Source: Escherichia coli
GTDB lineage: Bacteria > Pseudomonadota > Gammaproteobacteria > Enterobacterales > Enterobacteriaceae
DNA: 64,000 nt
NCBI RefSeq assembly: GCF_003018115.1
Contig: NZ_CP027457.1
Direction: 5' to 3' (one strand)
Shown: positions 23,658 through 59,426 of the stretch, in pieces
Numbering within the stretch: the first letter of the stretch is position 1
How the letters are laid out: every line of letters begins with the position of its first letter
Position numbers and translations under genes: made by a program
Notes under the pieces: generated by a model
Database searches by the model: none
Seen by the model: the letters and a program-made list of their open reading frames with translations, nothing else
What the model was told of the DNA's origin: nothing

Positions 23658-23742
23658 TGTCTGCAGACGCTGCTGCTCTTTTTCCTTGTCAAAGATGGAA
23701 AAGCAAAAAAACCAGCCAACTGAACTAGCTGGTAGTTAAAGT

Positions 23743-24719: not shown

Positions 24720-24736
24720 ATTGTTTTCAGCAACAA

Positions 24737-27822: not shown

Positions 27823-27823
27823 T

Positions 27824-30800
27824 TTAATCCCTAACCTTGAGAGATTTCATGCCAGGCTGCCAGTAGAGGACTGATCCTGTAGCCTCTTCATAAATTGTTA
27901 AAGATTTTAGCCCCGCTTTATCAGCCATGGCTGCTATATCACCGCGGCAATAACCACATACAGGCTCTTTAGATACACTCATTGTCATCTCACGCCCTTG
28001 AGACATACCCTTTTCAAAAGCTTGCTGTATAACACCTACTTCAGCATGAGCTGTAGCCATATTGCCGTTAGGAAGAGGCTTGTTTTGCTTATCTATTTTA
28101 GCTTGGATTCGTCCATCAATGAGTGTTGGCTTATTCACATCTGCTAAGTTGGAAGGCCTTGCACCCTGATTAGTATCAGTAAACTTAGCTCCATCAACAT
28201 TACCTTTCGCTACGACCTTAAGATTAGCATCAACGATTTTACTTAATTGTTTTGCCGCAGCAGAACCCAAAATTGGTGTCACCGAAGCCGCAATGCTCTC
28301 CAGACCCTGCTTTGTTTCGGTGTAGCTTTCTGCGGTCTGACGATCCACCCCTTTGGTGACCATGAAATAGTTAATCATGGCGTCTTTCACCTGTTGCTGA
28401 TTCTGTGCATCAACACTGGTGATATCGAGGAGATTGACCATCTGACCATACGCATCAGCGTATTGCTGGCTGTATTTCGAGTTATAAGGGCCATCTTCGT
28501 ACCCTTCTTTCGACGCAATAACTTTCAGTCTTGCGCTGGCACACGCTGAACTACCCGCATTACCATTACCGCAGGCAGCAATAACCTCCTTATCACTGGC
28601 AATATCTTTCTCACGCAGAGCATTATATTTCTGTTGCGCCTTTTCGCGCTCTGCCGGATCTTTACTATTTTTAAGCGTCTGTTTTGCTATCTCAAGCTCT
28701 GTCTTTTCAGACACGCTAAGATAGTTATTCTCAACCGCGTTCCTGCCTGCCTGTGCCCCCGTACCGGCAGACGCCGTACTGTTGCCTGCAAGCCCGCCCG
28801 CAATACCTGAGGCAATGGTGGCCAACATGCTGATTTGCTGACGTTCCTGTTCACTCAGGTTATCAGTACGACCACCATAGTAGTTATCAATGATATACCG
28901 GGCTGCAAGTTCACCGCTGAATGCCCCTGCAGCACCGGAAGCCGCATTGTTTCCGCCCAGTTGTGCGGCAAGCGCTCCCCAGACTGCGTGAGCCATCAGG
29001 TTTGCTTCCCGGTTATCGCCGGTGGCCTGTTTTATAAGCTGTGCCACTGCCGGATTCAGACCGCCAGCCAGTATCTGCCCCGGATTCCCTGCATTCAGTC
29101 CGCCCAGCACACCCGTGATGGCCTGTACCACCATCTGCGGCGTACTGCCCGTACCGTAGCCTTTCATGACCTCTCTGTATTCCGGGGTCTCCCGCAACTG
29201 TGCATCGCTCATGCCAGGATGCTCTTTCCTGGCTGCTTTCATCGCTTCAGTTTCGCCATACGTCATGACGATGTTACTCATCTGACCGCTAATCTGGCTG
29301 ATAACCTGCGCTTCCTGCAGACGCTTCTGCTCTTTCTCCCTGTCAAATATCGGTGCAATGCTGCCGTTGGCGTTTTCCGGGTCCCGGCTGAGCCCGGCAA
29401 TATCCTGCTTCTGACTCTCATTATCACGGATAATGAGATTTCCGCCGCTGATGGCGGATGACGTGGTACCTTCAGCATGTCCACTGCTGCCGGACATACC
29501 GGTAAGTGCGTTCGCCGCACCGGCTATTGCATTTGAGGCCACCATCTGGCTGGCTGACATCCCTGAGCCACCCGATAAACTGATTCCGGTATGGCTGGCT
29601 TTATAGTCTGCCTGGTTATGGATATCCGACCAGCCCAGCGTATTGGTATTGAGGCTGTTTTTGTCATCCGTTGCCGTGGACGCAATTACCGCACCATTGA
29701 GCTGAGTGTGATTCCCAACAGTGACATCAAACCCGTCTTTTCCGGCGTAGATACCACTCTGTTCCCGGACAGAATCGTAATTGCTTTTAATTTTGTCCTG
29801 ACTGATGCTGGCATAGCCGCTGCCGGACATTGAGCCAAACGTGAAGCTTCCACCTGCAGCCACGCTGTTCTGTCTGCTGTCGTAACGGTCACTGTCCTGA
29901 AGGCTCGAAATGGTCAGGTTGTTGCCGACATCTGCTGTGACTTTCTCGCCACTGACCTGAGCCCCCGACAGGGTGGTATCACGTCCGCTTGTGAGGGAGA
30001 CATTTTTACCCGCATCCAGCGTGGTTTCGGTCCAGGTCGTGCCGTTGCCTTTCTCCCTGCCCTCTGAACCATTGATACCGGCGAAGATACTGAGGCCTCC
30101 GCCATTGGTTCCACCACCAAAGCTGACGCCCACGCCGCCACCTTTGCTGCTGTTCTTCCCGGTTGTCTGTCGGGTGTCAGCGGCGGCAGCCAGCAGAATA
30201 TCGTTCTGTGCATTCAGGCTGGTGTCATTGCCGGACTTAATCTGGCTCCCGGTAATGAGAATATCGCCGCTGTTGTTATGGTCCTTATTTTTCCCCGTGG
30301 CAGTGACAGAGACATTGTTACCGGCGCTGAGGGTTGAGCCGGAGACGATATCGTGCTGATATTTCGTCTCAGACTTCGACTGCTGATGGTTGAGCGAAAT
30401 GCTCACGCCGATACCATTATTCGGGTCAGCACTCTGTTGCTGCAGTCCGTGGTTAACACCGGCCTGTACACCAGACAGAACCGCCTGTGTTCCTTTCAGT
30501 GCCGCCAGACGGCTGTCGCTGGTTTCTTTCGCCTCCCGGGCCATGGTGGCAGCATTATTGATGGCACTGCCCACTGTGCCGGAAAGGGCAACCGTCAGCC
30601 CGCTTTTCTTCTGCTCAAATTTTTCGTCCACAGTACGACGGTCATGCCCCGGGTCAACCACCACACTGTCACCGGTAATGCTGATATCCCGGTTCGCAAT
30701 CACATCCGAACCGCTGATATGAGCCTGTTTGCCCGCGGTAATACTGACATTACCAGCAGTGGAGCCGATGGTGCTGGCACTCTGACTCTGCGTTGTCCCG

Positions 30801-33800
30801 GCCTCGCGGCGGTCGTGCGTTGTCTTACTGCTGCCAGTGGTGAAACCAATACCGCCGGTACCCGTCAGACCGGATTTCTTCGTTTCCTTAAAGCGCCAGG
30901 ACGTATCTGTACTGGTGGCAGCAAGAACATCAACATGGTTATCCGCCGCCAGTGACACATCCCAGTCAGCCACCACATCCGAACCCTGTACCGTCAGGTT
31001 ATTACCGGCGTTAACGGTCACGCGGTTTCCCGACAGCAGGGAGCCCTTCTCACGGGTGACGCTGTCTTCCGTGATGGTCCGGGTGGTCTGATGGCTGAGG
31101 AGACGGTTACGGGTTTCCCCTGATTCACTGTAGTGATAATCACTTTCCGTGGCAGTACCCAGTACGATGTCATGACCGGCATTCACACGGATATCGCCCT
31201 TTGCCGTTACAGCGGTCGCAACTGAGGTGATATCCCGTCCGGCAGTAACCGTAATGTCACCGCCACTGGTCATGTCTGTTCCCTGCTGCCGGACCGAATC
31301 ATGAACCGTCTTCATGCTGAAAGTGCTGTCGTGGTCACCTGCGCCTGTGGACTCCGCAGCCATGTTCACATCCCGTCCGGCGCGGATAGCCATACTGTTT
31401 TCAGCCGTAATACCGGCAGCCTGGCTGTTCACATCACGACCGGCGGAAAGCATCAGACTGTTCCCGGCAGTGACCGTGGGGGCCACGGCATGAGTTTCAT
31501 ACCACCCGGACCCGCCATAGCGACGACGTTCTCCGGCCTGTATCGCGTTCATGTTCAGGTCATTACCGGCGGACAGTAACACGCTGTCACCGGCAGAAAC
31601 GGCGGCACCGGTGATACTGATATCCCCGGCTGCGCCCATAAACAGTGAGTCCGTTGCCCTGACAGCAGCCAGCGGACCGGTATCCGTTCCGCTGAAATGG
31701 TTATATCCGTTGTTCATCGCCCACTGTTCTGTCCGGGTGAGGTTACTGATGTTTCCGGTGGCGCTTTCCAGGGATACGGTTTTACCGCTGATGACTGAGC
31801 TGATATTGCCGATATCCCCGATGGCCTTCAGGTTCAGTGCACCACCGGCGTTTATCAGTCCGGCATTCAGGTTGTCGATACTACCTGTGCTGTCGAGCAG
31901 GAGGTCATTCTGTGCGTTGATGCTGCCGCCGCTGTTGGTGATATTGCCACCCGCAAGCTGCACGTTGTTCCCGCTGATAACGCTGCCATTATGAAGGGTG
32001 ATATCTTCCGGAGACAGATACAGTTTCGGAACCATGACTGTCTGTCCGTTGATGGTGACTGACTCCCACCACAGCAGGCTTCTGGTCAGTTGTGCAACCT
32101 GCCCGGCGGTCAGCGACACTCCAAAGGTCAGTCCGAGCGCTTTCTGTTGCGCTGCCGCGCTGTCCATCAGGTATTTCATCTGCGCCAGGTCAGAGCCTGT
32201 GCCGTTAATATAACGTGAGCCCGTCTGGTTCAGTATGACGTTACTGACATACCGGGTATCAAAAGCCGCATCCCCCAGAAAGCGGTAATCTTTTTCCGGT
32301 TTCAGGCCAAGACGGTCAAGAATGTACGACGAGCCCAGAAACTGTTTTTCATCGGTATATGCCGGGTCTGTTTCTCGTGGTGCCTGTCCGGGTTGCATCC
32401 TGAGCAGGTCATACAGTCCGGCAAACAGACTGCTGTCCACCTTTCCGAGACCATCCAGTTTCGGGTTCACCGTAATCAGATACGGACTGTCCGGGTCCGT
32501 GGACGGGACAAAATAACCATTGTTACCGGATGGCAGGGGATAGTTGCTTACACTTGCCCCGGACAGCGACAGCGCACCCGGGATATCCTTCAGCGTATCC
32601 GGCAGCGCGTCATTCCATACAGGGCCGGTTATCCCGGTACCGCTTTCATTCAGCAGGGCTTCACCGCTCACCCCCTGACTGACCGTCGGTGGTGTCAGGG
32701 AGTTCAGCGAAGGCACCGTTATCGTGTTACCTGCACCACCTGCCCGGGGCATGACAGTGGTATTACCGGTGTCAGTGGCAAAGCTGGCAGACACATCACC
32801 GGCAGCGCTGATAACCGCACGGTACTGACCTGCCGGAGAGGTGCCACTGGCTTCTGTCGCATCCGGCGAGACCTGGCGATAGACCTTATACCATGGCTCA
32901 GTAAACCACGCTTTGGGGAGTGAGCCGGAGGCAAGCCGCCAGACCGTTTCCTTTCCGGTGGTCCCCTCCTGCCAGCCCTGATTGTTCAGTGTGTCGCCAC
33001 TCAGGGTCATACTGCCACCGGCGAGAAGAAACGATGCCTCATTATCCAGTCGTCCTGCACGGATATGCATATCAGCGCCGCCGGATATCCGGGCAGCATG
33101 ACCGGAGGCACTGACTGTCACCGTTTCCGTATCGCCCGTACGGATACGGTATTCATCAGGTACCGTGGCACCCTCCCCCCAGTACACGGCCAGATATTCC
33201 ACACCATCATGCCGGACAACACCCCACCAACGGTTATTTTCCGGAACCGGTGAAATCACCCCGCGACTGCTTCCAGGAATGACCTCATGGCTGGCCGAAA
33301 TGGCATCCCAGGAATTCAGCAGATGCGCCGTATTCATGGTGATATCGCCACGTGTGGTTTCAATATTACCGGAACGGTTAATGATTTCGCTGTTTGCCGT
33401 ACCGCTGCTGTCCTTCTGTACCCACAGACTGTTGCCGGCCAGGATATCACCATGCTGGTTATGCAGACGGTCTGTAAACAGCTTCAGGTTATTCCCCGCA
33501 TAAATCAGCGCACTGTTCAGCAGGGTACCGGCCACATTCATTGTCAGACTGCCTGCCGTGCCGGTAAAACCACTGATGGTGATATCACTCCGGCTGTTCA
33601 GACTCACATCGCCACCGGCCTGAAGTGAACCCGGTGCGTTAAGGAAAAGACGCTGTGCGCTGAAAACACTGTTGCCTTTACCGGCAGTCAGCGTTCCATT
33701 GTTGGTGAATGCCTCTCCGGCACCGAGCACCATGGCATCACCCAGCATGACACCGCCGTTGGTGATGGCATTTTGCGACGTGACGGAAAGGGTTTTCCCT

Positions 33801-36800
33801 GCGGCCAGGGTACCGTAATTCGTGAGGGCAGCAATCAGTTTCAGTGTGACATCACCGGTGGCCACCACCTGGCCCTGACCACTGAAGTCCTGAGCGTCAA
33901 GCAGCAGGTTGCCTGCACTGTACAGCCGCCCTGTACCATTTTGCAGCAGTGAACTGCCCTTGACGCCAAGCCCGGAGGTTCCCAGCAGGGTACCGCTGTT
34001 GCTGAATGTGTGGTAATTCACCAGCAGATCCGCACCCTGAAGCGTACCGATATTATTCAGCGTGGTTCCTTTAACGTCGGCACTGCCGGTGGCAAGTACG
34101 CGTCCGCCGTTGACAGTATTCACCACATCCAGCAGCAGGGTGGCAGCCTGTACCAGTCCGCTGCCGGTGTTCGCCAGCACCTGCGCCGTCAGCGTGAGGT
34201 TACTGCCGGAGAAGATTTTGCCGTCGTTCTGCAGACGGTCAGTGGCGTTCAGGGAAACCCCGCCACCACCCTGTATCGTGCCCTGGTTACTCAGGGTCGC
34301 AGTACTGACATTCAGTGCATTCCGGCTCATCAGAACACCACCGGAACGGTTGTTCACGCCACCGGAGGCGGCCAGCGTCAGCGTTTCGCCCTGCAGATGC
34401 CCGCCGTTTGTGAGTTGTCCTGCCGTGATGGTGGTGGCATTTCCCTGTAATTGCCCGTCGTTTGTGACACTGTCTGCCTTCAGCGTCAGCACACCTGCAC
34501 TGAGCAGTTTTCCGCTCGCGTGATTGTTCAGCGTCTGATTCACCGTGAGCGTGAGAGCATCCACACCGGTGATGTCACCCGCACTGGTCAGTGAGTTCGC
34601 CTTCAGAGTCAGATTTTTTGCAATCCATTGTCCGCTGTTGCTTAAATTCAGTGCACTGAGCGCCATTTCACCGTTCGAGGTGACTTTGCTGCCTGCTGTG
34701 CTGACAAGCTCACCCGTCAGACGTGCAGTCAGGCTGTCAGCCGCCTGGATCGCCCCGCTGTTTGCCAGACTGTCTGCGGTGATCAGCACCCGTTTGCCCT
34801 GCCAGTGTCCGGAACTGGTAATACTGCCTGCGGTGATTGTCAGATCGCCGCTGGTCAGCAATGAACCTCCGTTATTCATCAGCGCAGGTTGAGGGGATAC
34901 CATACGAGCAGCAAGCGTCAGCGCGGCAATCCCGGTGAGCGAGCCACTGTTGGTGACACTGTTCTGGCGAATCGTGACATGGTCACCCTGGACAGTGCCG
35001 CTGTTATCCAGTGAGTTTCCATCAAGGGAGAGCGTGCCGGCCGAAAGCAGACTGCCCCGGTTGTCCGTGGTGGCTGCTTTCAGCGTGGTGTCACCCTGGC
35101 TCATGATATCGCCGGTACTGGTCAACTGACCGGTTGCCGAAGCAGTAAGGTTACCGGTTGCCAGTACGGAACCACTGTTCGCCCATCTGTCCGCCTGCAC
35201 GGTGAGATTCTGTCCCTGCGTGGTCCCTGCGGTATTCAGTGTTTTACCCCGGAGGGAGAGGTCGCCCGCCGTCAGCCAGCGTCCGTTACGGCCCTGTGAG
35301 AGGGTGTCGCCTGCAAGCGCCAGTGCACCTGCGCCCTGCAACAGGCCATCGCCATCCAGCGTGGTCGCCCTGACGTTCAGCGTGTCAGCGGTGATTTTTC
35401 CCGGATTGCTGAGGGAGGCAGTGTTTAACGTTAAACCGTTATCACCGGTGATAAGCCCGCTGTTGCGGATGTCCGGTATATCCAGCGTCAGGTCTGCAGC
35501 ACTGTACAGCGTGCCGTTCTGCTGATTATCAAGCCTCTGTGTGTTAACGGTGAGTGAGGCCTCCCCCTGCAACAGACCGCTGTTGGTCAGGGTCTGTGAC
35601 TGTGTATTCAGGGCGGAAGCAACAAGTACGCCGCTGCTGGTCAGTTCCGGCGCAATGAGGCTGAGCGACGGGGCACTGCTTTTCCCGCTGTGGGTGAGCT
35701 TTTCACTGGCGTTCACCACCATGGTCTGTTGTGCTGCCTGCGTACCTGCAAGACGTGCATCTCTGGCGTTGATGCTGAGATTTTTGCCGCTCTGAAGTTG
35801 TGCGCCCGCTGCGGTACTCAGTTTGTCTGCCTGAACCCGGAGGGTGTCACCGGCACTGGTTTCCCCGTCCAGCGCCACGGTTGTCACATTCAGCGTCATC
35901 GCAGCATCGCTGTGGGTGACTGATTTTTTACCGGAGCTCAGCGTCTGCGCACTGACTGTCAGCCCTTTGCCGCCGGACAGCACACCGTTCTGTGTCACAT
36001 CCTGCGCCTTCAGCACCAGTACATCATCGCTCACCAGCGAACCTGTACTGGTCAGTTTCCCACTGGCTGTGATATCCACTTTGCCCTTCGCGCCAGTGCG
36101 GCCGCTCTGGGTAAAGTCGCGGGTATTCACGGTCAGGCGACCGCCACTGAGCAGGGAGCCACTGTTGCTGAGCGTTGTACTGCCGAGCGTCAGGGAAGCC
36201 CCCTGAACAGCACCACTGTTATTCAGCGTGCCGGCATCGAGTCCCGCATGACCTTTCGCCAGCAATATTCCGTCCTGTGTCAGCGTGGTGGCGCTGGCCG
36301 TGAGATTCTGCCCGGCGGTTATCTGTCCCTGTGTTGTCAACGTGTCACTGGCGACAGTCACAATATTGCGGGCCGCGTTAATCTGGCTGGCGGTATCCTG
36401 TGTGATGTTTTTCGCGGCAAGCGTTACATCCCGGCCGGCAGTCAGTTTTTCATTCTGTTGAGTGATTCTGCCGCCGGCGGTCAGGCTGAGGTCCTTGTCG
36501 CTGTTAAGCGTTCCATTGCTGAGAACGATATCGCTCCGGCTGCTGACGCTCAGGTTACCTCCCGCTTTATGGTCGCCGGTTAAGGTGACGCCCTGACCTT
36601 TTGCAGTGACGGCCCCCGTGGCGAGACTGTTGTTGACAGTCAGTCTGCCGCTGGCATCCAGGGTGATATCGCCATCGCGGGCATAAAGGTTACCAAGATT
36701 AACCCCGACACCACTTTCAGTGGAGGTCAGATGAATACGCCTGGCGTACATTCCACCGAGCGCGCCGGTATCAACGGCAACTTTCGGCACATCACCTTCG

Positions 36801-37501
36801 CCCTTCAGTGCACTGACACGACCATCTGCAGTTATCCGGTTAGCGCCTGCAGTGACAGTTAAATCCTTCGCATGAAGCGCGGCATTCACTTCCGTTGCAC
36901 GGGCAATAATGGATACGGCATCGCTCCGGGTGCCGTCCAGGCCCGCGCCATTGATGGTGATACTGCCTTCAGTCACCTCCAGCGCCTGCAGGCTGCCGTC
37001 GGCATTCATCACAGGTCTGCCCGTGGTGAGCGTCGCGTGCGGCGTGTTGATAAAACCACAGCCGTCACAGGTGATACCATACGGGTTGGCAACAATCACA
37101 TTCGCCGCTTTGCCGGCCACTTCCGTATAGCCCTGCAGCAGTGAACGGTTACCGCCGGTCACTTCGTTGATGATACCCTTCGCTTCCCCGCCCGCTTTCA
37201 GGTTCGGGTTATTCTGTATCAGTCCACCAAGCTGCGTCGGATTAAGCTTACCGGTGGCATTATTGAGAATCAGCCCTTCCTTCCCGACGTTGTAATCCGT
37301 AAACCGGTTATGCGAAATCCCGGCCCCGTTCGGCGTGGCAATGTTCACGACCGGCACACCATTTGCCGCTTTATCCATTCCGGCCCCGTTTTGTGGGGTG
37401 ATGACGGCCCCCACAGCCGGTAACAACGGCTGCCCGGCGATAATCGTACTGATAAGGTAACTCAGCAGGCGGTAAGTGAAGCGAACGGGAGGCTGATGCA
37501 T
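27824..37501 (-). CDS. cdiA: contact-dependent inhibition exoprotein CdiA (3225 aa) with a deaminase-like C-terminal toxin
   Basis: N-terminal two-partner-secretion domain ([21 protein letters not shown]), long repeat region, pre-toxin VENN ([11 protein letters not shown]), C-terminal HAEVGV...(~25 aa)...PVCGYC. Confidence 0.95.
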
Positions 37502-37513
37502 GGTAATAATCCC

Positions 37514-39280
37514 TTAAAACGCGACGGCAACGCGCCAGTAAACCGTGAGATGGTCAGGGGCAAGCCAGTCCGGGTAGACCAGAGGCAGTCCGGCGGTGAA
37601 CGAACCGGAAACATGACCACTGGTGGTGCTGAGCCCGGCAGCAGCACCCCACAGCGTGCCGGACGAGTACGGGTCATCGCTGTCAGAGTGCAGCCAGCCG
37701 CCGTCCAGTGCAGCCACTGCACGGACAGTTCCCACATATGGCAGGGAGAACAGAGACCAGGACAGCTCATTTCGCAGATAACCGCCGTTATTACCGGAGA
37801 TATACTGCTCCTTAAAGCCACGCACTGAACTCTCACCCCCGAGGCTCAGTTGTTCCACACCATGAAGACGGTCCGGTGACCACTGGGCATAAGCGCTGGT
37901 CAGCCACCACACCCTGTCCGTGACGGGGCGCTGAAAACTGGCACTCACCGACCATTTCCGGAACTGATTTACGGGCAGGTCTCCCCTTTTCCCGTGGTCG
38001 CTTTCTGCGCCGAACCAGGGCATCCCCCGTGTGAATACCGGATTCAGTGTTCCGACCCCCCCCAGAAACTTGTGTGTGTGATTCAGCCCGACAGAAAATG
38101 AAGTGAGTTTACGGCTGCTGCCCTGAAGCAGAACATCATCCAGATAATTGTGAATAATGCGGTGCTGCAGACCTCCGGTCAGTGCTGTCTTCATGTCCCC
38201 GTTACGGAACAGAACATGCGACAGTCCCAGCCGGTGAGTCTGCAGGTCTCCCGTGGAACGCCACCGCCAGCCCCGGTTATCAATGGTGCTGAGGTAGTCA
38301 CTCCATGAATACGTGTAATCCACCAGGGTATAGCCATACGGCAGACTGACACCGGCGGCAAAATTCCTCGCATCATGTGACACCGAAAAGTCACTGCTCC
38401 GTCCCCCGCTGACAAACCAGTTGTCAGCCAGCCCCAGCGGATTATTAAAGGAAAGGACACCATTTAACTGCCCCGTACCGGTATTCTTCTGTCCGCTGTT
38501 GTCGAAGCCCGCGCTCCCTGTGACAGGCCATTCCGGCGATGCCGTCAGTGTCACCACCGACCATCCCTCACGGTCACCGGGCGATATTTCAATCTGTACC
38601 GGCTCCGTACGCAGACGGTTAATCTGCTCCATCCCCTGCTCAATATCCCGCAGGTTCAGAACCGCCCCCTCCATTCCCGGGAAAACCATCTTCAGGGTGC
38701 GGGCAGGAAGGTCAGCGCCTTCCGCCCGGATTTGCTGCAGCCTGCCTTCCATGACCGTTATGTGCAGTACGCCCCCTGAAAGGTCCTGCTCTGTCAGAAA
38801 GGCCCGGCTGGTGATATATCCCCGACGTATATAGCCGTCCGTCACAGCATCCGTGACCGTGGTCAGCCCCGTGATATTCAGACACTGATTCACCCACGGT
38901 GCCACCAGTCTGTCGGTTTCTGCAGACGTCAGTCGGGTGGCCCCACTGACAACAATGCGTGACACCGTAAAGCAGGGACCTTCAGTACCGGCAGACGTTT
39001 CCCGAGACGGTACAACAGTCAGCGGCGTACTGCGCTCCAGCGCATCACGCTGACGCTGGTTTTCATCCAGCAACTGCTGCTGTTGCTGCTGAATTGCACT
39101 GCGGTCACCCGGAGACAGCATGGCTGCCGGAGACGAAAACGAAAGAATACAAAGGCAGGGGAGGAGGGAAAAATAGCGTGCCACCGGAGAGAAAGTGCGG
39201 AGCTTAAATGCGCACTGACCGGAAACCATACCAGGCAACAAATTTCTGTTCGCCAGTAAGTTATCCTGCCGGTGCTGCAT
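37514..39280 (-). CDS. cdiB: CdiB two-partner-secretion outer-membrane transporter (Omp85/TpsB family)
   Basis: 588-aa ORF ending 12 nt upstream of cdiA with a terminal aromatic residue (WRVAVAF), typical TpsB position and size. Confidence 0.9.
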   Translation of the reverse strand: MQHRQDNLLANRNLLPGMVSGQCAFKLRTFSPVARYFSLLPCLCILSFSSPAAMLSPGDRSAIQQQQQQLLDENQRQRDALERSTPLTVVPSRETSAGTEGPCFTVSRIVVSGATRLTSAETDRLVAPWVNQCLNITGLTTVTDAVTDGYIRRGYITSRAFLTEQDLSGGVLHITVMEGRLQQIRAEGADLPARTLKMVFPGMEGAVLNLRDIEQGMEQINRLRTEPVQIEISPGDREGWSVVTLTASPEWPVTGSAGFDNSGQKNTGTGQLNGVLSFNNPLGLADNWFVSGGRSSDFSVSHDARNFAAGVSLPYGYTLVDYTYSWSDYLSTIDNRGWRWRSTGDLQTHRLGLSHVLFRNGDMKTALTGGLQHRIIHNYLDDVLLQGSSRKLTSFSVGLNHTHKFLGGVGTLNPVFTRGMPWFGAESDHGKRGDLPVNQFRKWSVSASFQRPVTDRVWWLTSAYAQWSPDRLHGVEQLSLGGESSVRGFKEQYISGNNGGYLRNELSWSLFSLPYVGTVRAVAALDGGWLHSDSDDPYSSGTLWGAAAGLSTTSGHVSGSFTAGLPLVYPDWLAPDHLTVYWRVAVAF

Positions 39281-39444: not shown

Positions 39445-39586
39445 ACGGACTAATCGGAACCTATCGGCTGAGCGATATCGATCCGGAAGCGTATCTGCCT
39501 CATATACTGAGAGTTTTGCCGGAATGGCCTTCCAACCTGTTGATGAACTACCTCCATGGAACGTAGTGCTCACCAATAAATAAGCG
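39445..39586 (+). mobile_element. degenerate IS66 3-prime remnant (about 140 bp)
   Basis: About 85 percent identity by eye to IS66 21740-21880 (ATCGATCCGGAAGCGTATCTGC...CCATGGAACGTAGT.CTCACCAATAAATAAGCGTCA), lacking the terminal repeat. Confidence 0.6.
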
Positions 39587-39624
39587 TCATGCCTAACTTA
39601 AAGTAAATAGAATAGCAGATATGC

Positions 39625-40203
39625 TTAATCCTTTTTGTTGAGTGTCACTGGACCATAGACCATAAAAACACAAGTTGAACCAGATACTCCCCTATAACCT
39701 CCCTGTCCATCGCCGAGATAACAGGCAAGAGCAGTAAATTCCCAGGCATCATCCATAGACGCAGCAATTTTGCGTGTGGTTAGTGTTTCTTTGCCATATT
39801 GCTCACCAAAGTCGTGCACGCGCCGGGCATATTCTCCAAGTGACTCGCTGACTGACGGATGGTCCCACCCCCATAACCAGGTGCTGTCTTCAGTATCGTA
39901 AGTGCCAACCACTTGAACAGGTGCTGTGACCATGATCTCTTTTTCATCATTGGTGAAGGTGATTGTACCTGTATTAAGATCAACATCCCACGCAGCAGTA
40001 TCAAGTCCCCACATTTCTATAGCGGCTTGTGTGAGTAACTGCATTTCGTTATTCGCTCGTGCAATTGTGAGATCTGGCTCTGAAAGAATTGCTGTGTTAG
40101 CACTGGAATCTTTATTCTTTCTGCCAAAAAGCTTCTTGAATAAATTAGTCATTCCTACTCTCCCGTTTTCTGCAAACACTTTGGCTGAATTATTAACGTT
40201 CAA
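39625..40203 (-). CDS. hypothetical protein
   Basis: 192-aa ORF between the IS66 remnant and ykgG; no motif recognised; possible alternative start at MTNLFKK. Confidence 0.5.
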   Translation of the reverse strand: MNVNNSAKVFAENGRVGMTNLFKKLFGRKNKDSSANTAILSEPDLTIARANNEMQLLTQAAIEMWGLDTAAWDVDLNTGTITFTNDEKEIMVTAPVQVVGTYDTEDSTWLWGWDHPSVSESLGEYARRVHDFGEQYGKETLTTRKIAASMDDAWEFTALACYLGDGQGGYRGVSGSTCVFMVYGPVTLNKKD

Positions 40204-40641
40204 ATTTTGTCAGACATGTGTATACCCTAACCTGACATCAGGCCTGATAATGAAAAACTATCAGAATAAAATCGTCATGAGTATTTATTGAGACAAGTAA
40301 TTAAAGGTCATAGATTCATTTATGACATATTCAGGCGTGATAGCGGCATCGTGGTAGTGACTCAGTCCTTTAAACCCGCAATATAAAACGAAAAAACAGA
40401 CCGTTTTTCAGAAGATTAGCGCATTTATTGAGAAGTTTAAAGGCGTGGGAGGGCATCTTTAGTTACAAGCACCCAGACTAACCCTTGCCACAATAAACAG
40501 GCATGAACACTGACTGCTATTGTAAGGCATTAACGGAGTCCGTATTGACGCTTACGCTCAAGTCGCGACTAATACAACTAAATGAATGATTAACAGCTCA
40601 GCTAAACGGAGCTGTTAATCGTATATACATACTAAAATGTA

Positions 40642-41337
40642 TTAGCAGTCATCAATAATCAAGTAAGTTGCATGTACTGGTCCATGCACACCAACAACTT
40701 TGATCAGTTCTATATCTGCAGTAGAACTTGGGCCTCCAATCAGATTGATACAGGAAGGCAGTCGTTGTCCTTCCTGAGCCATTTCATGAAGTTTTTGCGC
40801 AAGCTGAGCCACTCGGGGGAGAATAGTGCTTTTGCGTAAAACAAATAATGATGCTTCAGGCAAAAGGCTTACTGAGCGCCCACGTTCTGGTGCGGAGAAT
40901 AAGACAATGCCTCCTGATTCTGTCAGCCCATACTCAGCGAAAACGACACCAGTTTTTGCCTTTTCAGCAAGATGGATATTTTCATCGCCCTTCTCCGGAT
41001 CCCACAGAGCAGCGTCCATTTCTTTTTGTAGCAATGGCGTAATCCCTGTATCGACCAGTCGTTGATCGTTGCTGATAATGACTGGCCCGGAACCGAACTT
41101 CCAACAGATGTCTAAGGCTGTTGATGGTGCGTTCTCAGGCGACACCAGAACACACTCGGCAAGCATCACTTCCGAGGCAAATTTAATAAACGCCTCACAG
41201 CGTTGGTCTGATGTCAACTCTGTTAAACGTGTCGTAGCCAGCGTATTTACAGGCTCCGGCATTGCTTCGGGAATATGTCTTACTGGTCTGCCAAGCTTTC
41301 TGGCGATCGCAACGAGAAATTCCTCTCTGTTTTCCAT
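40642..41337 (-). CDS. ykgG: LutC/YkgG-family lactate utilisation protein
   Basis: 231 aa, closely matching my recollection of E. coli YkgG (YAEYGLTESGG...IELIKVVGVHGP). Confidence 0.85.
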   Translation of the reverse strand: MENREEFLVAIARKLGRPVRHIPEAMPEPVNTLATTRLTELTSDQRCEAFIKFASEVMLAECVLVSPENAPSTALDICWKFGSGPVIISNDQRLVDTGITPLLQKEMDAALWDPEKGDENIHLAEKAKTGVVFAEYGLTESGGIVLFSAPERGRSVSLLPEASLFVLRKSTILPRVAQLAQKLHEMAQEGQRLPSCINLIGGPSSTADIELIKVVGVHGPVHATYLIIDDC

Positions 41338-41340
41338 AAA

Positions 41341-51568: not shown

Positions 51569-53431
51569 TCACGACAGCTCAGGAGGGTTATTCCTGATGT
51601 CATCTTCACAAATAATGGTTAACGCATCATATATCATTCTGCGTCTGTTCCTGTTTTCGGCCTTATCGCCATACAACATCATCACATTTTTAATTTCATC
51701 GACCGGTGATTTCACATAGTGAACTAATACACCAAGCTTCTCAACACATTGCAGTAAAGTATATTTCTTACTGCCTGTGAAAAGCCCTATCATAGTTTCT
51801 TTACGTTCGCGACTGGATAATACTTTGTTTTCCATAATGACTTCAGCCAGCGTCTTACCATCATAAACATACTCTTTATCTATCAGAATATTTATCTTAT
51901 CCAGCACCTTCTCTACGTCATCAAGCAAACCTGTAATATATGGGGGCGCAATATATGGTTTCGTACTGATCTTTTCAAGCATACAATTATACATCTTAAT
52001 AACACGCATCAGGGTAAAATTGTTCGCATCATACTGTATTTCACCCTCCTTATATACAGGTTCAATAAGTGGTATTGTTTCAATAAATGCATCCTGATAG
52101 GCTTTTACATGGTCAAGCCAATAAAACAACGAGCCATACTTTATATTTTTTCTATTTACTTTAACCTCCAGTGCTGTCCGAAGCAACGATAATGCCCCCC
52201 TGACATATCCTGAAGGTAATTCACCAAACAATCCTTTTCTTTCCATGTCATCATAATGCTGCAGCACATCATTAATTTTATTTTTCCTTATCAGACAAAT
52301 GTACACCGCAAGTGTTTCGTAGCAGCTGGTCACATGAACAGCCTCATTCTGCAACTGCCCAAAATAGCTTATAATCTTTTTCAGATATGCGTCATCACAA
52401 CCATTCTTATCATTAATATTAAATACAAGATCTTTCAGACGGGAAATATATTCCTGAGATTTATCATCAAGTGAAACACTATAACGAGACAATGTTCCTT
52501 CTGCACTGTTTTCAAACTTATAAAACATTTCCAGTAATTTTTTTGCATAAGGCGTTGTATCAAAGCTGGTAAAGTCATAAAGATATTGCGCAGCGTAACC
52601 ATACAAACCATGAATCCAGAGTCCTTCTCTCACCAACACTCTGAGATAATATGCAAGGTTTTTAAGTATCTTCGTCTTTCGTTGTATATCAAGTAAGACA
52701 CTTAATGAATAAAATGCATTATAGAATTTATCAATATTCCTGAGCACTTTCTCCAGTTCATCCTTATCCAGCTTCTTCTCCCGGTAATCCTTTTTATATT
52801 CATTTTTGATAGCCATGATATATTGTTGCATCAGGCTCTTGCTTTTCCCGTTATCCTTCCGTATAGTTCCTGTATATTTCCCCAGAGCATACAGCTTTCC
52901 ATTTTCATGAAAATCTTCCTTGTTGAATCCCAGTTCAGCCAGATATTCCCGAAGATAACGTTTAACAGCAGCTTCATCGCTTTCTGTATCAGCGTGATCA
53001 AGACAAGGGCAATACGATTTCTGTAAAAAATTATAAATATGATAATAAAAAGCAGAGTCATTCTCTGGTCTGTATGTATTATACATATCTACAACAAGAA
53101 AAATAACCCCAAAAGTGCGCAGACAATAGCTGCGAAGGAATTCAGGTTTTAGTGTGGAATGCACTGGATAAGAATTCATCATGTAATAAAAATGTTCATA
53201 TCGGGCATATATGATCCGCCGTTGCTCCTGACTGAACACCCCTTCAGCATCAATAATACGACTGATCTCATTATAACGTTGATCCCAGAATTTTTGATGC
53301 ATTTCAAAATTGGTACTCTTCCGCTTGTGTGCCGGATTCTCGCCTTCCTTAAACAACCCCAAAACAGTACAAATATCATACAACAGATTTGTAAATGTGC
53401 GCATATGCTGTGCTCTCCGGTTGGTTTGCAT
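51569..53431 (-). CDS. large AT-rich hypothetical protein (620 aa), function unknown
   Basis: Long uninterrupted ORF in AT-rich DNA between the YagK-like and AlpA genes; no catalytic or nucleotide-binding motif recognised. Confidence 0.7.
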   Translation of the reverse strand: MQTNRRAQHMRTFTNLLYDICTVLGLFKEGENPAHKRKSTNFEMHQKFWDQRYNEISRIIDAEGVFSQEQRRIIYARYEHFYYMMNSYPVHSTLKPEFLRSYCLRTFGVIFLVVDMYNTYRPENDSAFYYHIYNFLQKSYCPCLDHADTESDEAAVKRYLREYLAELGFNKEDFHENGKLYALGKYTGTIRKDNGKSKSLMQQYIMAIKNEYKKDYREKKLDKDELEKVLRNIDKFYNAFYSLSVLLDIQRKTKILKNLAYYLRVLVREGLWIHGLYGYAAQYLYDFTSFDTTPYAKKLLEMFYKFENSAEGTLSRYSVSLDDKSQEYISRLKDLVFNINDKNGCDDAYLKKIISYFGQLQNEAVHVTSCYETLAVYICLIRKNKINDVLQHYDDMERKGLFGELPSGYVRGALSLLRTALEVKVNRKNIKYGSLFYWLDHVKAYQDAFIETIPLIEPVYKEGEIQYDANNFTLMRVIKMYNCMLEKISTKPYIAPPYITGLLDDVEKVLDKINILIDKEYVYDGKTLAEVIMENKVLSSRERKETMIGLFTGSKKYTLLQCVEKLGVLVHYVKSPVDEIKNVMMLYGDKAENRNRRRMIYDALTIICEDDIRNNPPELS

Positions 53432-53504
53432 TTTATCGCAGAGGACATTCTGAGCTTAACGTATCAAACTGACACAACGACATGCAATGCATATGGAGAA
53501 CAAT

Positions 53505-53792
53505 ATGTCAAATCAAACCGGACAGCTTTACACGCCTTCACGCATCCTGCGTATGGCTGAACTTACCCGACTGCTGGGTATATCAAGATCTACTATTTAC
53601 GTGAAAATAAATCCGGCCTCGAAATACCACGACCCTACCTTTCCCAAACCAATAAGGCTTGGTAGTGCATCCGTAGGCTGGCGGGCATCTGCCATCGATG
53701 AGTGGCTGATGTTACATACGGCACCAGCCTGGTCTGAACCTGAAAACAAACGAAAGGAACTTAATGATGACGACAAAACTATCACTCCCTGA
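53505..53792 (+). CDS. alpA: AlpA-family phage/island transcriptional regulator (P4 Vis-like)
   Basis: MAELTRLLGISRSTIY helix-turn-helix and FPKPIRLGSASVGWRASAIDEWL; start taken at MSNQTGQL. Confidence 0.8.
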   Translation: MSNQTGQLYTPSRILRMAELTRLLGISRSTIYVKINPASKYHDPTFPKPIRLGSASVGWRASAIDEWLMLHTAPAWSEPENKRKELNDDDKTITP

Positions 53793-55293
53793 ACTTGACA
53801 CAACTAAACTGCCTGACAGGTGCCAGGCATTACTTGATGAAATGCATGAAGAAACAGGAATACGCCGTGAAATACTTCTGTCTGTTATGCTGACGGTCAT
53901 GGCTGCCTCGGTCCAGGATACGCATGAAGTTGAACTTTCCGGAGGGCAACGTACCAGCCTTCAGATATTTATGTGTCTTTCATCAGCATCAGGCAGTGGA
54001 AAAACCTCTGCCTGCGCAAAATTAATCGCTCCTGTTCATGAAACAGAAGAAGAACTACATCAGGCATATATCGACGATAAAAAAAACTATGACCGAATGA
54101 TGGAAATGTGGACAACAGATAAAAAAATCCTGGAGCGGAGATATAAAAAGGAAATTGAAAGATCCCCGGAAAATGCTGCTGCTGCACGAGCAGCACTTGA
54201 AAAGTGTATAGCAAATAAACCCGAACCTCCCGTACAACAGGTTCTCATCGTGAATGACGCGACACCAGAAGGGATAGCTTTGAAACTCAGCCAGTCACCC
54301 TCTCTTCTGTTGCTGTCTGATGAAGGAGGTACTATTCTGGATAAGCGTTTCGAACGCAAATCGGCACTGTACAACACATTATGGAGTGGGCAACCAGTCA
54401 ACGTTGAACGGGCATCCAGACCCGGGTTCCGGCTGAATGATGTCCGTCTCACTATACTTATACTGACTCAACCGGTAATATTTAATAAGTTTTTTACTCT
54501 CACTGGCGATCAGATCCGGGGCAATGGCTTTCTGGCCCGGTTGCTATTTTGCGAACCCGGAGCAATTAAAATAATGACGACAGAACCGCATACTGCCACT
54601 CCTGTTGTGACGCAACAATGTGCAAGCTGTTTTCGTAAGAAAAGTTTTGGCAGTCAGATCAGAGACTCTCTGAGAGCATCCAGAGAAAGACGTGCAAAAA
54701 GTAAAGAGCGCATCTGCATGACATTATCAAATGCAGCATCCCGCGCACTGGAGCGCTTTCACAAAGAAAATATGGATACTGTCAGACAGAATCCTCATAT
54801 GGGTACTTTTGAAGACATTATTGTCAGAAAAAGAGAGCAGGTTGTCAGGATAGCAGCACTTCTGGAACTGGAGAAAGATCCAGACTCGACAGTAATAACG
54901 CTGGAAAGTACTAATAGCGCCATTTATCTCATTGAATTTTATTTCAAGCATCTTATATATAAACTTGAATCCCTTCGGGAAATATCCCCGGCTGAGAAAC
55001 TTGATAAATGGCTTCAGAAAAGAATTATCACAACAGCAGGTTACATATTCCAGAAAAGTTATATTTTACAATATGCCCCATATGCTCTCAGGAAAAAATG
55101 TGTTCTGGATGAAGCACTTGACATACTGGCGGAACAAAGGAAAATAAGGATTGATGATAACCTGGTTGTTTATATAGGAAACACGATTACACCATCCGAA
55201 CTGGCAAAAAAACTAAATATTCCTGCATTCGATGCCGGAGTTTTCATTTGTGATCATCAAAACATACTGAAGTATCACCGAAACAGACTATAG
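53764..55293 (+). CDS. YfjI/DUF3987-like P-loop protein of CP4/P4-type islands
   Basis: Walker A-like SASGSGKTSA; overlaps the alpA 3-prime end as in CP4-57-type elements. Confidence 0.7.
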   Translation: MMTTKLSLPELDTTKLPDRCQALLDEMHEETGIRREILLSVMLTVMAASVQDTHEVELSGGQRTSLQIFMCLSSASGSGKTSACAKLIAPVHETEEELHQAYIDDKKNYDRMMEMWTTDKKILERRYKKEIERSPENAAAARAALEKCIANKPEPPVQQVLIVNDATPEGIALKLSQSPSLLLLSDEGGTILDKRFERKSALYNTLWSGQPVNVERASRPGFRLNDVRLTILILTQPVIFNKFFTLTGDQIRGNGFLARLLFCEPGAIKIMTTEPHTATPVVTQQCASCFRKKSFGSQIRDSLRASRERRAKSKERICMTLSNAASRALERFHKENMDTVRQNPHMGTFEDIIVRKREQVVRIAALLELEKDPDSTVITLESTNSAIYLIEFYFKHLIYKLESLREISPAEKLDKWLQKRIITTAGYIFQKSYILQYAPYALRKKCVLDEALDILAEQRKIRIDDNLVVYIGNTITPSELAKKLNIPAFDAGVFICDHQNILKYHRNRL

Positions 55294-55462
55294 ATACTAT
55301 CGGACAAAAAATAAATTATCACAAGTGTATTATTCGTTATAATAATGAATAATCGTTATCTGAGTGCAATGCCAGGTTTTCATTACGAACTGGCATTGCA
55401 TTTATTTTTCAAAAAAGAAAGCAGTAACCATTTGGCTACTCTGAGTATGCCAGTCCATGAAA

Positions 55463-56680
55463 CTAAGCGAATTCCTTAGTGTTTTTAGCAAGTTGAGACA
55501 TCACATAATCCGCCCATGCCTGCATCATCGGTACACGCTGCTCCAGTAGATCAGTACGATGATATGCCGCCTCAACCTTATTTTTCAGCGTATGAGCGAG
55601 CGCCCTTTCCGCCAGATCCCGCGAATACCCCTGTTCACTACACCAGTCCCTGAATGTTGAGCGAAAACCATGTGCCGTGGCAACTCGCCCCGGTATATCA
55701 CTGATGGCTTTCTTTTTACGCAGAAAACTCGTCAACACCATATCTGAAAGGATCTGCTGCTTTCTGGGAGAAGGAAACACTAGTTCATCATGCAAACCAC
55801 GTATATTTTCCAGAATGTGAATGGCCTGCCGGGATAAAGGAACACGATGCTGTATCCTGGCTTTCATTCTTTCTGCGGGTATAGTCCATATCCGCTTATG
55901 AAAATCAATTTCAGCCCAGCGCATTCCCCTGGCTTCGCCCGAGCGGGTTGCTGTAAGTATCACCATTAATAACAGTGCCCGGGTAACATTATAAGGTTCA
56001 TCTGTATACACACTGGTCGCCACAAAAAGCGGTAACTGCCTCCAGGGCATTGCGGGTTGGTGTTCATCACGTCCTCTTGTCTGCTGAGGAAGCAAATGGT
56101 CAACCACATCAACAGGGTTTGCCACACAAAAACCGTGCGCCCATCCCCACTGCATAACAACATGAATGCGCTGTTTAACCCGGCTTGCCGTTTCTGACAA
56201 GGTTAACCAGACTGGACGCAGTGTTTCTGCCACGTCCGCAGCCGTAATCGAATCCAGCGTTTTTGCTCCCAGTTGAGGAAACGCGTAATTTTCAAGCGTC
56301 GATAACCACTGCCTGACATGCTTTGGATTTTCCCATCCCGGTGACAATTCAGCATGTACACGCCTGGCTGCATCGGCAAATGTTGGGATAACAACTTTTT
56401 CAGCTTCAGCCTTTTTAATCTCCAGTGGGTCATCACCTGCAGCAAGTTGCTCTCGCATTATCCGGGCAGCACGTGCAGCTTCAGCAATACTGACCTCAGG
56501 ATAAGTTCCCAATCCAGCATTACGCCTTTTTTGTGTCACCGGACTTACATAACGAAAAACCCATTTACCCCGCCCTTTTACTGAAGAAGGATGAAGAGTC
56601 AGTCCTGTAATTCCCCCATGGGGCAATGGTTTGTCATCAGGTTTGATATGCCTTGCTTTAGTATCCGTCAATACTGCCAT
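55463..56680 (-). CDS. int: P4-type tyrosine integrase
   Basis: 405 aa; N-terminal MAVLTDTKARHIKPDDKPLPHGGITGLTLHPSSVKGRGKWVFRY, catalytic boxes ...TATRSGEARGMRW..., AHGFRSTFRDW, LAERALAHTLKNKVEAAYHRTD. Confidence 0.9.
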   Translation of the reverse strand: MAVLTDTKARHIKPDDKPLPHGGITGLTLHPSSVKGRGKWVFRYVSPVTQKRRNAGLGTYPEVSIAEAARAARIMREQLAAGDDPLEIKKAEAEKVVIPTFADAARRVHAELSPGWENPKHVRQWLSTLENYAFPQLGAKTLDSITAADVAETLRPVWLTLSETASRVKQRIHVVMQWGWAHGFCVANPVDVVDHLLPQQTRGRDEHQPAMPWRQLPLFVATSVYTDEPYNVTRALLLMVILTATRSGEARGMRWAEIDFHKRIWTIPAERMKARIQHRVPLSRQAIHILENIRGLHDELVFPSPRKQQILSDMVLTSFLRKKKAISDIPGRVATAHGFRSTFRDWCSEQGYSRDLAERALAHTLKNKVEAAYHRTDLLEQRVPMMQAWADYVMSQLAKNTKEFA

Positions 56681-56945
56681 ACGCTAATTCCTGTTACTCT
56701 GGTATGCCATCCAGTATGCCATTAGTCTCTCGCTTCACTAAGAATACATTAGATAATATCGGACAGCAAAAAGTGTAATACATTGTTTATAATGAAATTA
56801 TATAACACCCCCGGATTAAGTCAGATTTATTTCAGGCGGCCCCCCTCACCGCCATATTTAAAGAAGAGCTCGTACGAAAGTACGGGCTTTTTTTTCGTAT
56901 ATTGCACACACCGGGGGGATGAGAATCCCCGACCGGGATACTTAG

Positions 56946-57632
56946 TTAATGCAACGGTTCACTCTTTGTCGCCGCGACTAATGGGCGAATTTTGTCACGA
57001 GTCTCCCAGACCGGAGGGATTTCCTCCAATTTAGTGACAGAAGCTCGTACAAAAGGCACCCGTGCAAGAGTCATAATCGTATCCAACCAACGGTCACGAA
57101 TAATGCGATCCGCCCTTTCATGACTCGGGTCATCCAGCTCAATAACACAGACTATTTTATTGTTCTTCTTTGAAACCAGAACATAATCCATTGCCATGCC
57201 ATTATAAATTGCAAAGAAACGCTTTCTTTCTTCTTCGCTAAACTCAGGTTGTTCTGGAAAGTTGATCAAGCGCCCCAGAGAGACCTGGCAATGGATATGA
57301 CAATAATGTCCAAACCATTTTTCCAGATTATCGAAATACATTTTTTCACAACGCGTGATTAACCACTCTTTTCTTTCCAATAAAATACCTTCGGCAACCA
57401 TTCCCTGAAATAACTCATCTCGCTCTTGCCAACGAGAGTCACGATAGGTTTTCTGCGGTATATAGCTCCTTGTCGACGCCTTAGCGGCAGGGGAAGTTGC
57501 AGATGAAGGGACTGGTTGCGATTTAGCGATGATTACCGATGAGGCAACTTTTCGGAGTGTCAATTTTCTGGCAACAGCAAAACCGGCGATAAATGCAATT
57601 GTCAAACAAGTTACAAAAGACATAAAGCTCAT
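56946..57632 (-). CDS. hypothetical membrane-anchored protein
   Basis: 228-aa ORF with N-terminal hydrophobic segment; no family assigned with confidence. Confidence 0.45.
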   Translation of the reverse strand: MSFMSFVTCLTIAFIAGFAVARKLTLRKVASSVIIAKSQPVPSSATSPAAKASTRSYIPQKTYRDSRWQERDELFQGMVAEGILLERKEWLITRCEKMYFDNLEKWFGHYCHIHCQVSLGRLINFPEQPEFSEEERKRFFAIYNGMAMDYVLVSKKNNKIVCVIELDDPSHERADRIIRDRWLDTIMTLARVPFVRASVTKLEEIPPVWETRDKIRPLVAATKSEPLH

Positions 57633-58178
57633 AATTAATGTTCACCTATCCATGTTGATTATATTTCATTACCAATGTTACTCGCTGAAGCGTGTTACAT
57701 GCCAACAATGCAACGATCAATATATAGTTAGTATCATGTTTTGATTATTACAACCATCCCTATTTAGCCATTGCGGCTTGCCTTCCACAAAAAAACAACA
57801 ACACACAATATTAGCCAAAGAATTAATTAAGATTAACCTTACATTTATAATATTATCCCTAAAGAATAAATCAGAGGAATATATTCGGTGTTAAACAGTC
57901 AGTCAAAGTATGGCCCATTGTTGATTAAACCTCATAAGCAAAATTGGCACCAGATCTCCTGTACAGGTTGAATGGCCGAAAAAAGATAGGCAGATGCTCA
58001 TTTTTTTGGCTTCTGGAAGAAAAACTCTCCGCGCTGGCAGTATTACACTGGTCTGATGCTATGACGAAAAATGCCTGGTAAGAGTATCTAAACCAGACTC
58101 CAGTTCAGCTTATCAACACCCTCAAAGTCGCCCCCCTGAACGCTAACCTGAAGTGAAAATCTGTTGAAATAAAACAAA

Positions 58179-58197
58179 GCCCGGTTCGCCCGGGCTC
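58179..58197 (-). terminator. hairpin downstream of phoH
   Basis: GCCCGG-ttcg-CCCGGGC inverted repeat; on the minus strand it is followed by a T-rich tract (TTTGTTTTATTT), consistent with a rho-independent terminator. Confidence 0.5.
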
Positions 58198-58213
58198 TGC
58201 ACCGATAATACAC

Positions 58214-59278
58214 TTAACTGTATGCATGTAGCGTACGTTGGCAAAGTGCCGAACGTACGCAATCCTCTTTACCGAATCGGACGATCCCGACCATTTCATC
58301 TTCTTCGAAACGTTCCAGTGCGTCACTTAATCCGGAGTGCACGCCGCGAGGTAAATCGCATTGCGTGATATCACCGTTGACGATAACCGTCACGTTCTCC
58401 CCGAGGCGGGTTAAAAACATTTTCATTTGCGCGGCAGTCACATTCTGCGCCTCGTCAAGAATGACGACTGCATTTTCAAAGGTACGTCCACGCATATAGG
58501 CGAACGGCGCAATTTCCACCTTCCCTATTTCCGGTCGCAGGCAGTACTGCATAAAGGAAGCCCCTAAGCGCCGGACCAGCACGTCGTATACCGGGCGAAA
58601 ATAGGGAGCAAACTTTTCTGCGATATCTCCAGGTAAGAAGCCAAGATCTTCATCGGCTTGCAGAACTGGACGGGTGACGATAATCCTGTCGACATCCTTA
58701 TGTATCAGGGCCTCTGCCGCTTTTGCTGCGCTGATCCAGGTTTTTCCGCACCCGGCTTCGCCCGTGGCGAATATCAGCTGCTTACTCTCAATAGCCTTCA
58801 GATAGTGCAATTGCGCTTCATTTCGCGCGAGGATGGGCGAGGTATCGCGACTGTCGCGGGCCATACCAATGGCTTCTACGCCGCTCATCTGCACAAGCGA
58901 GGTGACCGATTCTTCTTCACGCTGCTTATGGCTGCGCGAATCCCGTCTCAGCACACGTTTTGCCTCGCGACGAGCTTTGATCACTGCTTTTTGTCTTCCC
59001 ATGGAGAGCACCTTGAGTTGTTTGTATTCATCACACGCGCCGTTGGCAGCGCGATTATGCGCACGAACATCAGAGGGTTGGCTTCCTTGTAAGCCATAGT
59101 TTGCTTTTGGATAAAATGCCGAAAAACGGCTACGCGCACCGTTTACGGCGTCGGTAACACATGAAAAGAAAGGATGAGGTTGAAAATGCAAAGTGACGAG
59201 ATGACTACCGGAGGAGAAAACTCCGCGAGTGGTGGCGCGTTGATTATCTAAAACATGTCCAGTACAGGACGTTACCAT
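58214..59278 (-). CDS. phoH: PhoH ATPase (phosphate-starvation inducible)
   Basis: 354 aa; Walker A GEAGCGKT; matches my recollection of E. coli PhoH. Confidence 0.9.
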   Translation of the reverse strand: MVTSCTGHVLDNQRATTRGVFSSGSHLVTLHFQPHPFFSCVTDAVNGARSRFSAFYPKANYGLQGSQPSDVRAHNRAANGACDEYKQLKVLSMGRQKAVIKARREAKRVLRRDSRSHKQREEESVTSLVQMSGVEAIGMARDSRDTSPILARNEAQLHYLKAIESKQLIFATGEAGCGKTWISAAKAAEALIHKDVDRIIVTRPVLQADEDLGFLPGDIAEKFAPYFRPVYDVLVRRLGASFMQYCLRPEIGKVEIAPFAYMRGRTFENAVVILDEAQNVTAAQMKMFLTRLGENVTVIVNGDITQCDLPRGVHSGLSDALERFEEDEMVGIVRFGKEDCVRSALCQRTLHAYS

Positions 59279-59426
59279 CCGCGATCTCCATAGTGACTGA
59301 CTATCACTGCCGGGAACTTCCGCTGCTACTTAATAAGTACAACAGATCTCGCATTTATTGCAACAATATATTTACTTATATTTAACTATAAAACACCATT
59401 TCAGTGACATTAGTTTCTACTGGAAA

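Follow-up and report, generated by a model that had tools for sequence, protein, structure and literature searches.

A P4-type integrase gene beside a 15-nt serX remnant at the probable attR of a genomic island in Escherichia coli

We analyzed a 64,000-nucleotide stretch of Escherichia coli DNA (contig NZ_CP027457.1 of assembly GCF_003018115.1; hereafter, the window), in which a P4-type integrase gene, int, lies between a long run of cargo genes and the chromosomal gene phoH. The first-pass annotation of this DNA had recorded no recognizable tRNA or tmRNA attachment site beside int. Our data contradict that claim: a 3' segment of the tRNA-Ser gene serX lies 159 bp upstream of int, and the window very probably (with a probability of about 95%) shows attR, the int-proximal junction of a genomic island integrated site-specifically in the 3' end of serX. 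The direct basis for this conclusion is the identity of a 15-mer with the end of serX, an exact breakpoint between island and chromosome, collinearity with an empty site, and the occurrence of the same junction in two chromosomal backgrounds. The features discussed below are collected in Table 1.

The remnant, CCCCCCTCACCGCCA, corresponds to the last 15 nt of serX (56840-56854) and is the attR core, a cryptic ser'X. When all serX suffixes of at least 10 nt were searched for in the window, this was the sole occurrence; a fixed 15-mer is expected by chance 3e-6 times on both strands of the 1533 bp between the int start codon and the phoH stop codon. Related genomes carry 14 nt, with one C fewer, at the core position, and the match extends to 15 nt here because the window has one extra C. 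The first-pass annotation was correct that no tRNA or tmRNA gene is recognizable: ARAGORN returned 0 tRNA or tmRNA genes for the whole window, and Rfam at its gathering threshold found no tRNA or tmRNA in the window but only Ysr251 and IS102 RNA, both located elsewhere in it. Relaxing the Rfam cutoff to E<=10 over 56500-58300 did not yield a tRNA, tmRNA, or RtT match either, only sub-threshold matches to MicC and Thr_leader, models that merely recognize the terminator hairpin of serX described below. The tRNA finders are negative at int because only 15 nt of the tRNA remain at this end; of the explanations offered earlier, the one that proved right is that a tRNA fragment had escaped notice.

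The serX fragment surfaced only through comparison of the int-phoH spacer with genomes in which serX is unoccupied, in a megablast search of 5426 complete E. coli genomes. Window positions 56840-56937 match, at 99%, a tRNA-Ser and its downstream region annotated in thousands of genomes. In the junction alignment (A1), only int-bearing genomes share the sequence to the left of 56840, whereas that from 56840 rightwards is shared with unoccupied sites and is identical or near-identical to the sequence after the tRNA body in strains K-12 and EcPNK004. The latter strain is free of the integrase and has the gene order ghrA, intact serX, DUF2726 gene, phoH, efeB; its alignment to window 56840-58213 (94%) begins 15 nt before its serX end. 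The breakpoint in the alignment and the collinearity with EcPNK004 therefore place the right border of the island at 56839/56840.

The same junction was found against a second chromosomal background. The 159-bp arm between int and the core is identical or near-identical in int-bearing genomes, whichever flank, DUF2726 or ycdU, lies to its right. In strains SW071619 and 2014C-4135, the arm, the core, and the serX terminator abut a K-12-type flank (ycdU...pgaABCD-phoH). Because arm, core, and terminator adjoin two different flanks, the junction tracks serX and not the neighboring genes.

The first-pass annotation had proposed looking on the far side of the element for direct repeats of a tRNA 3' end. 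When 56681-58213 was searched for exact direct repeats of at least 13 nt shared with the remainder of the window, two chance 13-mers but no att-like repeat emerged, as attL lies beyond position 1. We therefore read the far end in related genomes, and there the repeat is present. Window positions 1-24000 and 39500-57000 match strain 2014C-4135 at 99.0-99.4%; its island, ~71 kb long, has int at one end and an intact serX adjoining ghrA at the other, and this serX lies ~9 kb beyond the point corresponding to window position 1. In E2348/69, which has a DUF2726 flank like that of the window, a ~60-kb island also ends at an intact serX beside ghrA. In both strains, island DNA begins directly after the serX CCA, and the repeat common to the two island ends is CCCCCTCACCGCCA. 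In these two relatives, the 14-bp repeat is present at both island ends, with intact serX at the ghrA side; the window itself holds the attR copy (56840/56841-56854).

The gene annotated earlier as encoding a P4-type integrase is full length, and its product is a P4-type (DUF4102-class) tyrosine integrase by domain set and catalytic motifs. Pfam assigned an Arm-DNA-bind_3 (DUF4102) domain (PF13356, residues 4-92, 1.1e-15), a central SAM-like Phage_int_M domain (PF22022, residues 101-191, 2e-24), and a C-terminal catalytic Phage_integrase domain (PF00589, residues 232-375, 1e-19). The catalytic set R-K-H-R-H-Y is intact (TATR246, K273, H337GFR340, LAH363, and AAY373), with the residues placed from conserved box motifs and not by structural alignment. 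As for membership in the P4 type, int adjoins an att site made of a tRNA 3' end. The protein is 97% identical to a 400-aa integrase at the serX/ycdU junction of SW071619. The exact int sequence occurs in 686 public contigs and falls in a 2954-member cluster in which Shigella flexneri is represented; the 90% cluster contains a 405-aa S. flexneri member. A tblastn search against phages returned 455 records, all below 60% identity; the best among the matches listed reached 33-40%, and the top 15 listed are not P4. The integrase of the window is presumably still active.

A GAAA-tetraloop hairpin with a T-tract had been suggested to mark the 3' end of a small RNA (sRNA), and this suggestion held: the hairpin belongs to the native serX terminator, since the identical stretch trails intact serX in K-12 and other strains. 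The sequence 56861-56895 is found downstream of intact serX in both K-12 and EcPNK004. The 65-nt stretch 56841-56905 that holds the hairpin folds at -22.7 kcal/mol (z = -5.4), and 0 of 200 shuffles fold as well. Our terminator call is based on this fold; the terminator scan missed the serX terminator on the + strand, probably owing to base-pairing of the A-tract with the T-run.

The sequence downstream of serX is repetitive in other strains. K-12 carries three tandem ~181-bp units there, annotated as RtT sRNA; the window holds just a partial first unit (56855-56937). In strain DETEC-S792, the repeat unit repeats the tRNA-Ser 3' end together with the terminator. In this int-bearing strain, one additional unit separates int from the DUF2726 gene, so that the att core is present twice.

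Several alternative explanations were considered. The first-pass annotation had allowed for a non-tRNA integration site or a degraded att site, in which case the boundary of the element would not be defined by a tRNA. The lack of a complete tRNA or tmRNA in the ARAGORN and Rfam searches would be compatible with this, but we regard it as almost certainly wrong, as the exact 15-nt end of serX is followed by the native terminator and the breakpoint falls exactly where the tRNA ends in empty sites. Degradation in particular is at odds with an intact core, which comprises 14-15 nt against the 14 bp of the published repeat (PMC3064760). It is likewise conceivable that the DUF2726 gene and the 1.5-kb spacer are part of the mobile element and that the boundary lies at the phoH terminator. 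The G+C content of the gene (0.43, compared with 0.49 for the whole island side) and the restricted distribution of the segment, which is present in only 1043 of 5426 genomes, point in that direction. We nevertheless consider it extremely improbable, because the gene stands between intact serX and phoH in int-free genomes such as EcPNK004, int lies beside the segment in only 68 of the 1043 genomes, and the same island occurs next to ycdU without a DUF2726 gene. These data show that the DUF2726 gene is chromosomal flank and not island cargo.

A highly unlikely explanation is that the 15-mer represents the core of an RtT-like tandem unit and that the island entered, or later recombined with, a downstream repeat copy instead of the tRNA gene. 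The three units after serX in K-12 and the extra unit of DETEC-S792, which places its own tRNA 3' end and terminator between int and DUF2726, lend this idea some substance. It is difficult to reconcile with the two relatives in which attL was read, where island DNA directly follows the serX CCA with no unit left behind, and with the unoccupied DUF2726-type site of EcPNK004, which has no extra unit. Even if it were true, the site would still be the sequence of the tRNA-Ser 3' end.

A number of points weigh against integration at serX as we describe it. The 15-nt core is short and would be weak evidence alone; the case rests on the breakpoint and on collinearity. The serX-downstream tandem repeats of other strains hold extra core copies, so that the recombination partner could, in principle, be such a copy and not serX itself. 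Since attL lies outside the window, the direct repeat of this genome is inferred from relatives, and none of the complete genomes searched covers more than 91% of the window. Finally, the activity of Int, the role of AlpA, and the arm sites proposed below are deduced from sequence.

Table 1. Coordinates of the serX junction, the integration module, and the chromosomal flank in the 64-kb window
Feature	Position	Strand	Description
serX island body as far as visible	1-56839		Left end (attL, intact serX) outside the window
AlpA-family small DNA-binding protein gene	53487-53792	+	Pfam Phage_AlpA, 1.7e-17
DUF3987 protein gene, int-proximal module	53764-55293	+	Pfam DUF3987, 7.1e-64; conserved in E2348/69, SW071619, and 2014C-4135
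int	55463-56680	-	405 aa; full-length P4-type (DUF4102-class) tyrosine integrase; Pfam domains and catalytic motifs
Island-side arm of attR (attP-derived), also int upstream region	56681-56839		Kept in int-bearing genomes examined, absent from unoccupied serX sites
Candidate arm-type Int binding sites	56702-56710 and 56714-56722	+	Two GTATGCCAT repeats 12 bp apart
Promoter-like site facing int	56797-56824	-	CTGACT-16-TATAAT, 10/12 consensus match
attR core, cryptic ser'X	56840-56854	+	CCCCCCTCACCGCCA, last 15 nt of serX tRNA-Ser(GGA); exact match to annotated K-12 serX 3' end
Native serX terminator	56861-56895	+	GC stem 56868-56887, GAAA loop, A/U-extended pairing, then T8
Remainder of first serX-downstream repeat unit (RtT-like), chromosomal	56896-56937	+	99% match to K-12-type serX/RtT region
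DUF2726-domain gene, chromosomal flank	56946-57632	-	228 aa; Pfam DUF2726, 2.5e-18
phoH terminator-like site	58174-58200	-	Terminator scan
phoH	58214-59278	-	Annotated in all matched genomes; next rightward gene common to all

Integration in the 3' end of serX can be described by a scheme that draws on the anatomy of the junction and on published work on serX and serW islands. The circular element would carry the 14-bp core between two arms, and Int would recombine this core with its identical counterpart, the final 14-15 nt of serX. At attL, the tRNA gene would be completed by the island-borne copy of the core and then be followed by the hairpin and T-run of the island, with the predicted sequence GATTATAAGCGCATGTTA... 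after the serX CCA. The displaced chromosomal core, the old serX terminator, and the downstream DNA with the DUF2726 gene and phoH would come to lie 159 bp upstream of int, forming attR. The predicted attP of the excised circle would read ...TTTCAGGCGG-CCCCCTCACCGCCA-GATTATAAGC..., and the restored empty site would consist of serX followed by TATTTAAAGAAGAGCTCG. In the relatives, the island's own hairpin and T-run (AAGCGCATGTTA..TAACATGCGCTTTTTT) directly follow the serX CCA at attL, and they apparently replace the terminator that is carried off to attR.

Candidate accessory elements were found on the island side of the core. The motif GTATGCCAT occurs only twice in the 64-kb window, compared with 0.53 copies expected, and both copies lie on the int side at a distance of 118-138 nt from the core. 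In 2014C-4135 and E2348/69, another pair, likewise spaced by 12 bp and in the same orientation, is located at attL, 57-77 nt into the island from serX. We propose that these pairs may serve as arm-type sites for the Int N-terminal domain. The promoter-like site that faces int might be its promoter; the number of promoter-like sites in this region is not above that in shuffles. The alpA gene adjoins the DUF3987 gene and int in E2348/69, SW071619, and 2014C-4135, and the AlpA-family protein is likely the island excisionase (recombination directionality factor). A 620-aa open reading frame (ORF) without a Pfam match (51569-53431, - strand) travels with alpA, the DUF3987 gene, and int in the same three strains and appears to belong to the conserved integration module.

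To the right of the island, the window continues into the E. coli chromosome with phoH, efeB, efeO, and efeU. The interval between int and phoH had been estimated at about 1.5 kb and measures 1533 bp; the DUF2726-domain gene is the one real gene inside it. Between the serX terminator and phoH, E. coli genomes have either of two alternatives, the single DUF2726 gene or ycdU-IS3-dgcT-pgaABCD as in K-12, and a near-identical island is present in both flank backgrounds. Rfam also reported Ysr251 (Yersinia sRNA 251, antisense type) at 58219-58412 on the + strand, antisense to the 3' end of phoH, with 188 bits against a gathering score of 100.

The cargo within the window comprises genes for an Ag43-type autotransporter, a dGTPase, a type I restriction-modification (R-M) system with a DarT/Macro protein, copies of IS66, cdiBA with orphan modules, and genes for lactate utilization. 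The autotransporter gene occupies 857-4051 (- strand), with an Rfam IS102 RNA (3995-4231, - strand, 74.8 bits) immediately upstream. The type I R-M operon consists of hsdM (9700-12138), hsdS (12132-13445), hsdR (15190-18285), and an M48/YgjP peptidase gene (18285-19001), and it surrounds an ORF at 13567-15171 (+ strand). The 534-aa product of this ORF combines a DarT domain (covering only profile positions 31-188) and a Macro (DarG-type) domain in one protein. Elsewhere, darT and darG are separate genes (E2348/69), or darT is frameshifted (2014C-4135). The contact-dependent inhibition (CDI) locus spans 22290-39280 on the - strand, with cdiB at 37514-39280 and cdiA at 27824-37501. CdiA has 3225 aa and a VENN motif followed by a Deam_C C-terminal toxin domain; an assignment of this ORF as LifA/Efa1 was rejected. 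In the matching genome, immunity genes and orphan toxin/immunity modules follow cdiBA.

The same cargo is present in the complete public genome of 2014C-4135. As the ~99% identical island occurs there in a ycdU-pgaABCD background and here beside DUF2726, the variant carrying CDI, lactate, and defense cargo might be, or might recently have been, horizontally mobile through Int and att, which would be undescribed as such. We put this forward tentatively and at less than even odds; a single integration followed by homologous replacement of the flank would also place one island in two backgrounds. Strain 600055 has the same int/attR junction (99.3%) followed by a truncated DUF3987 gene, an inverse-autotransporter pseudogene, and fyuA, the gene for the yersiniabactin receptor. 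Since this strain carries different genes behind the int module, the cargo at this position varies widely between strains.

The island boundary is a normal tRNA att site, and our analysis thus adds nothing new on the choice of target by the integrase. Its value lies mainly in the correction and in a point of method. The right border is fixed at 56839/56840, and the DUF2726 gene is assigned to the flank. In this island family, tRNA finders will always be silent beside int because the int end keeps only 14-15 nt and the intact gene lies tens of kilobases away. An att site of the serX type is revealed only by comparison with unoccupied sites or by a search for repeats of tRNA 3' ends.

The junction can be compared with those of well-studied islands. 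OI-43 and OI-48 of the O157:H7 strain EDL933 are integrated in serW and serX and are flanked by perfect 14-bp repeats, TGGCGGTGAGGGGG; these reproduce the final 14 bp of serW/serX, and the Shigella SRL-PAI has identical repeats (PMC3064760). The repeat sequence is the reverse complement of the core found in the window. In OI-43/48, a P4-family int lies at the end with the cryptic ser'X, next to ycdU, and the islands excise by recombination between the repeats (PMC3064760). serX is also an island site in CFT073, UTI89, RS218, and others, and excision of the SRL-PAI depends on its int (PMC7545054). The island of the window shares with OI-43/48 (TAI, SpLE1) and the SRL-PAI the insertion site serX (serW being the paralogous site), the core CCCCCTCACCGCCA, seen in the window at attR, and the layout, with a P4-family int at the ser'X end and an intact serX beside ghrA (ycdW) at the other, which for the window was read in relatives. 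The 400-aa integrase found in a relative at the ycdU flank is encoded by a gene 15 bp shorter than that for the 405-aa protein of the window, which fits the published relation of the OI-48 int to the SRL int (PMC3064760). The islands differ in cargo: ter/ure/iha, or resistance genes with fec, are found in OI-43/48 and the SRL-PAI, whereas the window has CDI, lactate utilization, type I R-M with DarT/Macro, dGTPase, and Ag43. The right flank differs as well, being the DUF2726 variant that lacks ycdU and pgaABCD.

Another close counterpart is the island between serX and the DUF2726 gene in enteropathogenic E. coli O127:H6 E2348/69, with the same order phoH-DUF2726-attR-int-DUF3987-alpA-(620-aa ORF) and 96.6% nucleotide identity over 55400-59300. 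The type I R-M/DarTG block is shared with the window, and the serX-proximal module (DUF4942, CbtA/YeeU, and others), which lies outside the window, is of the same type in E2348/69 and 2014C-4135. Where the window has cdiBA and lut, the middle cargo of E2348/69 includes a large gene for a TcdA/TcdB-type glycosyltransferase toxin and genes for the type III secretion effectors EspL2, NleB, and NleE. This island is probably IE2 of Iguchi et al. 2009. The integrase of the satellite phage P4 and those of the K-12 CP4-type cryptic prophages have the same three-domain architecture and use a tRNA 3' end as attB. They differ from the element of the window in the tRNA targeted, and the latter is a large island in which no phage structural genes were seen. 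The type of junction and the integrase family are therefore already known; only the cargo differs.

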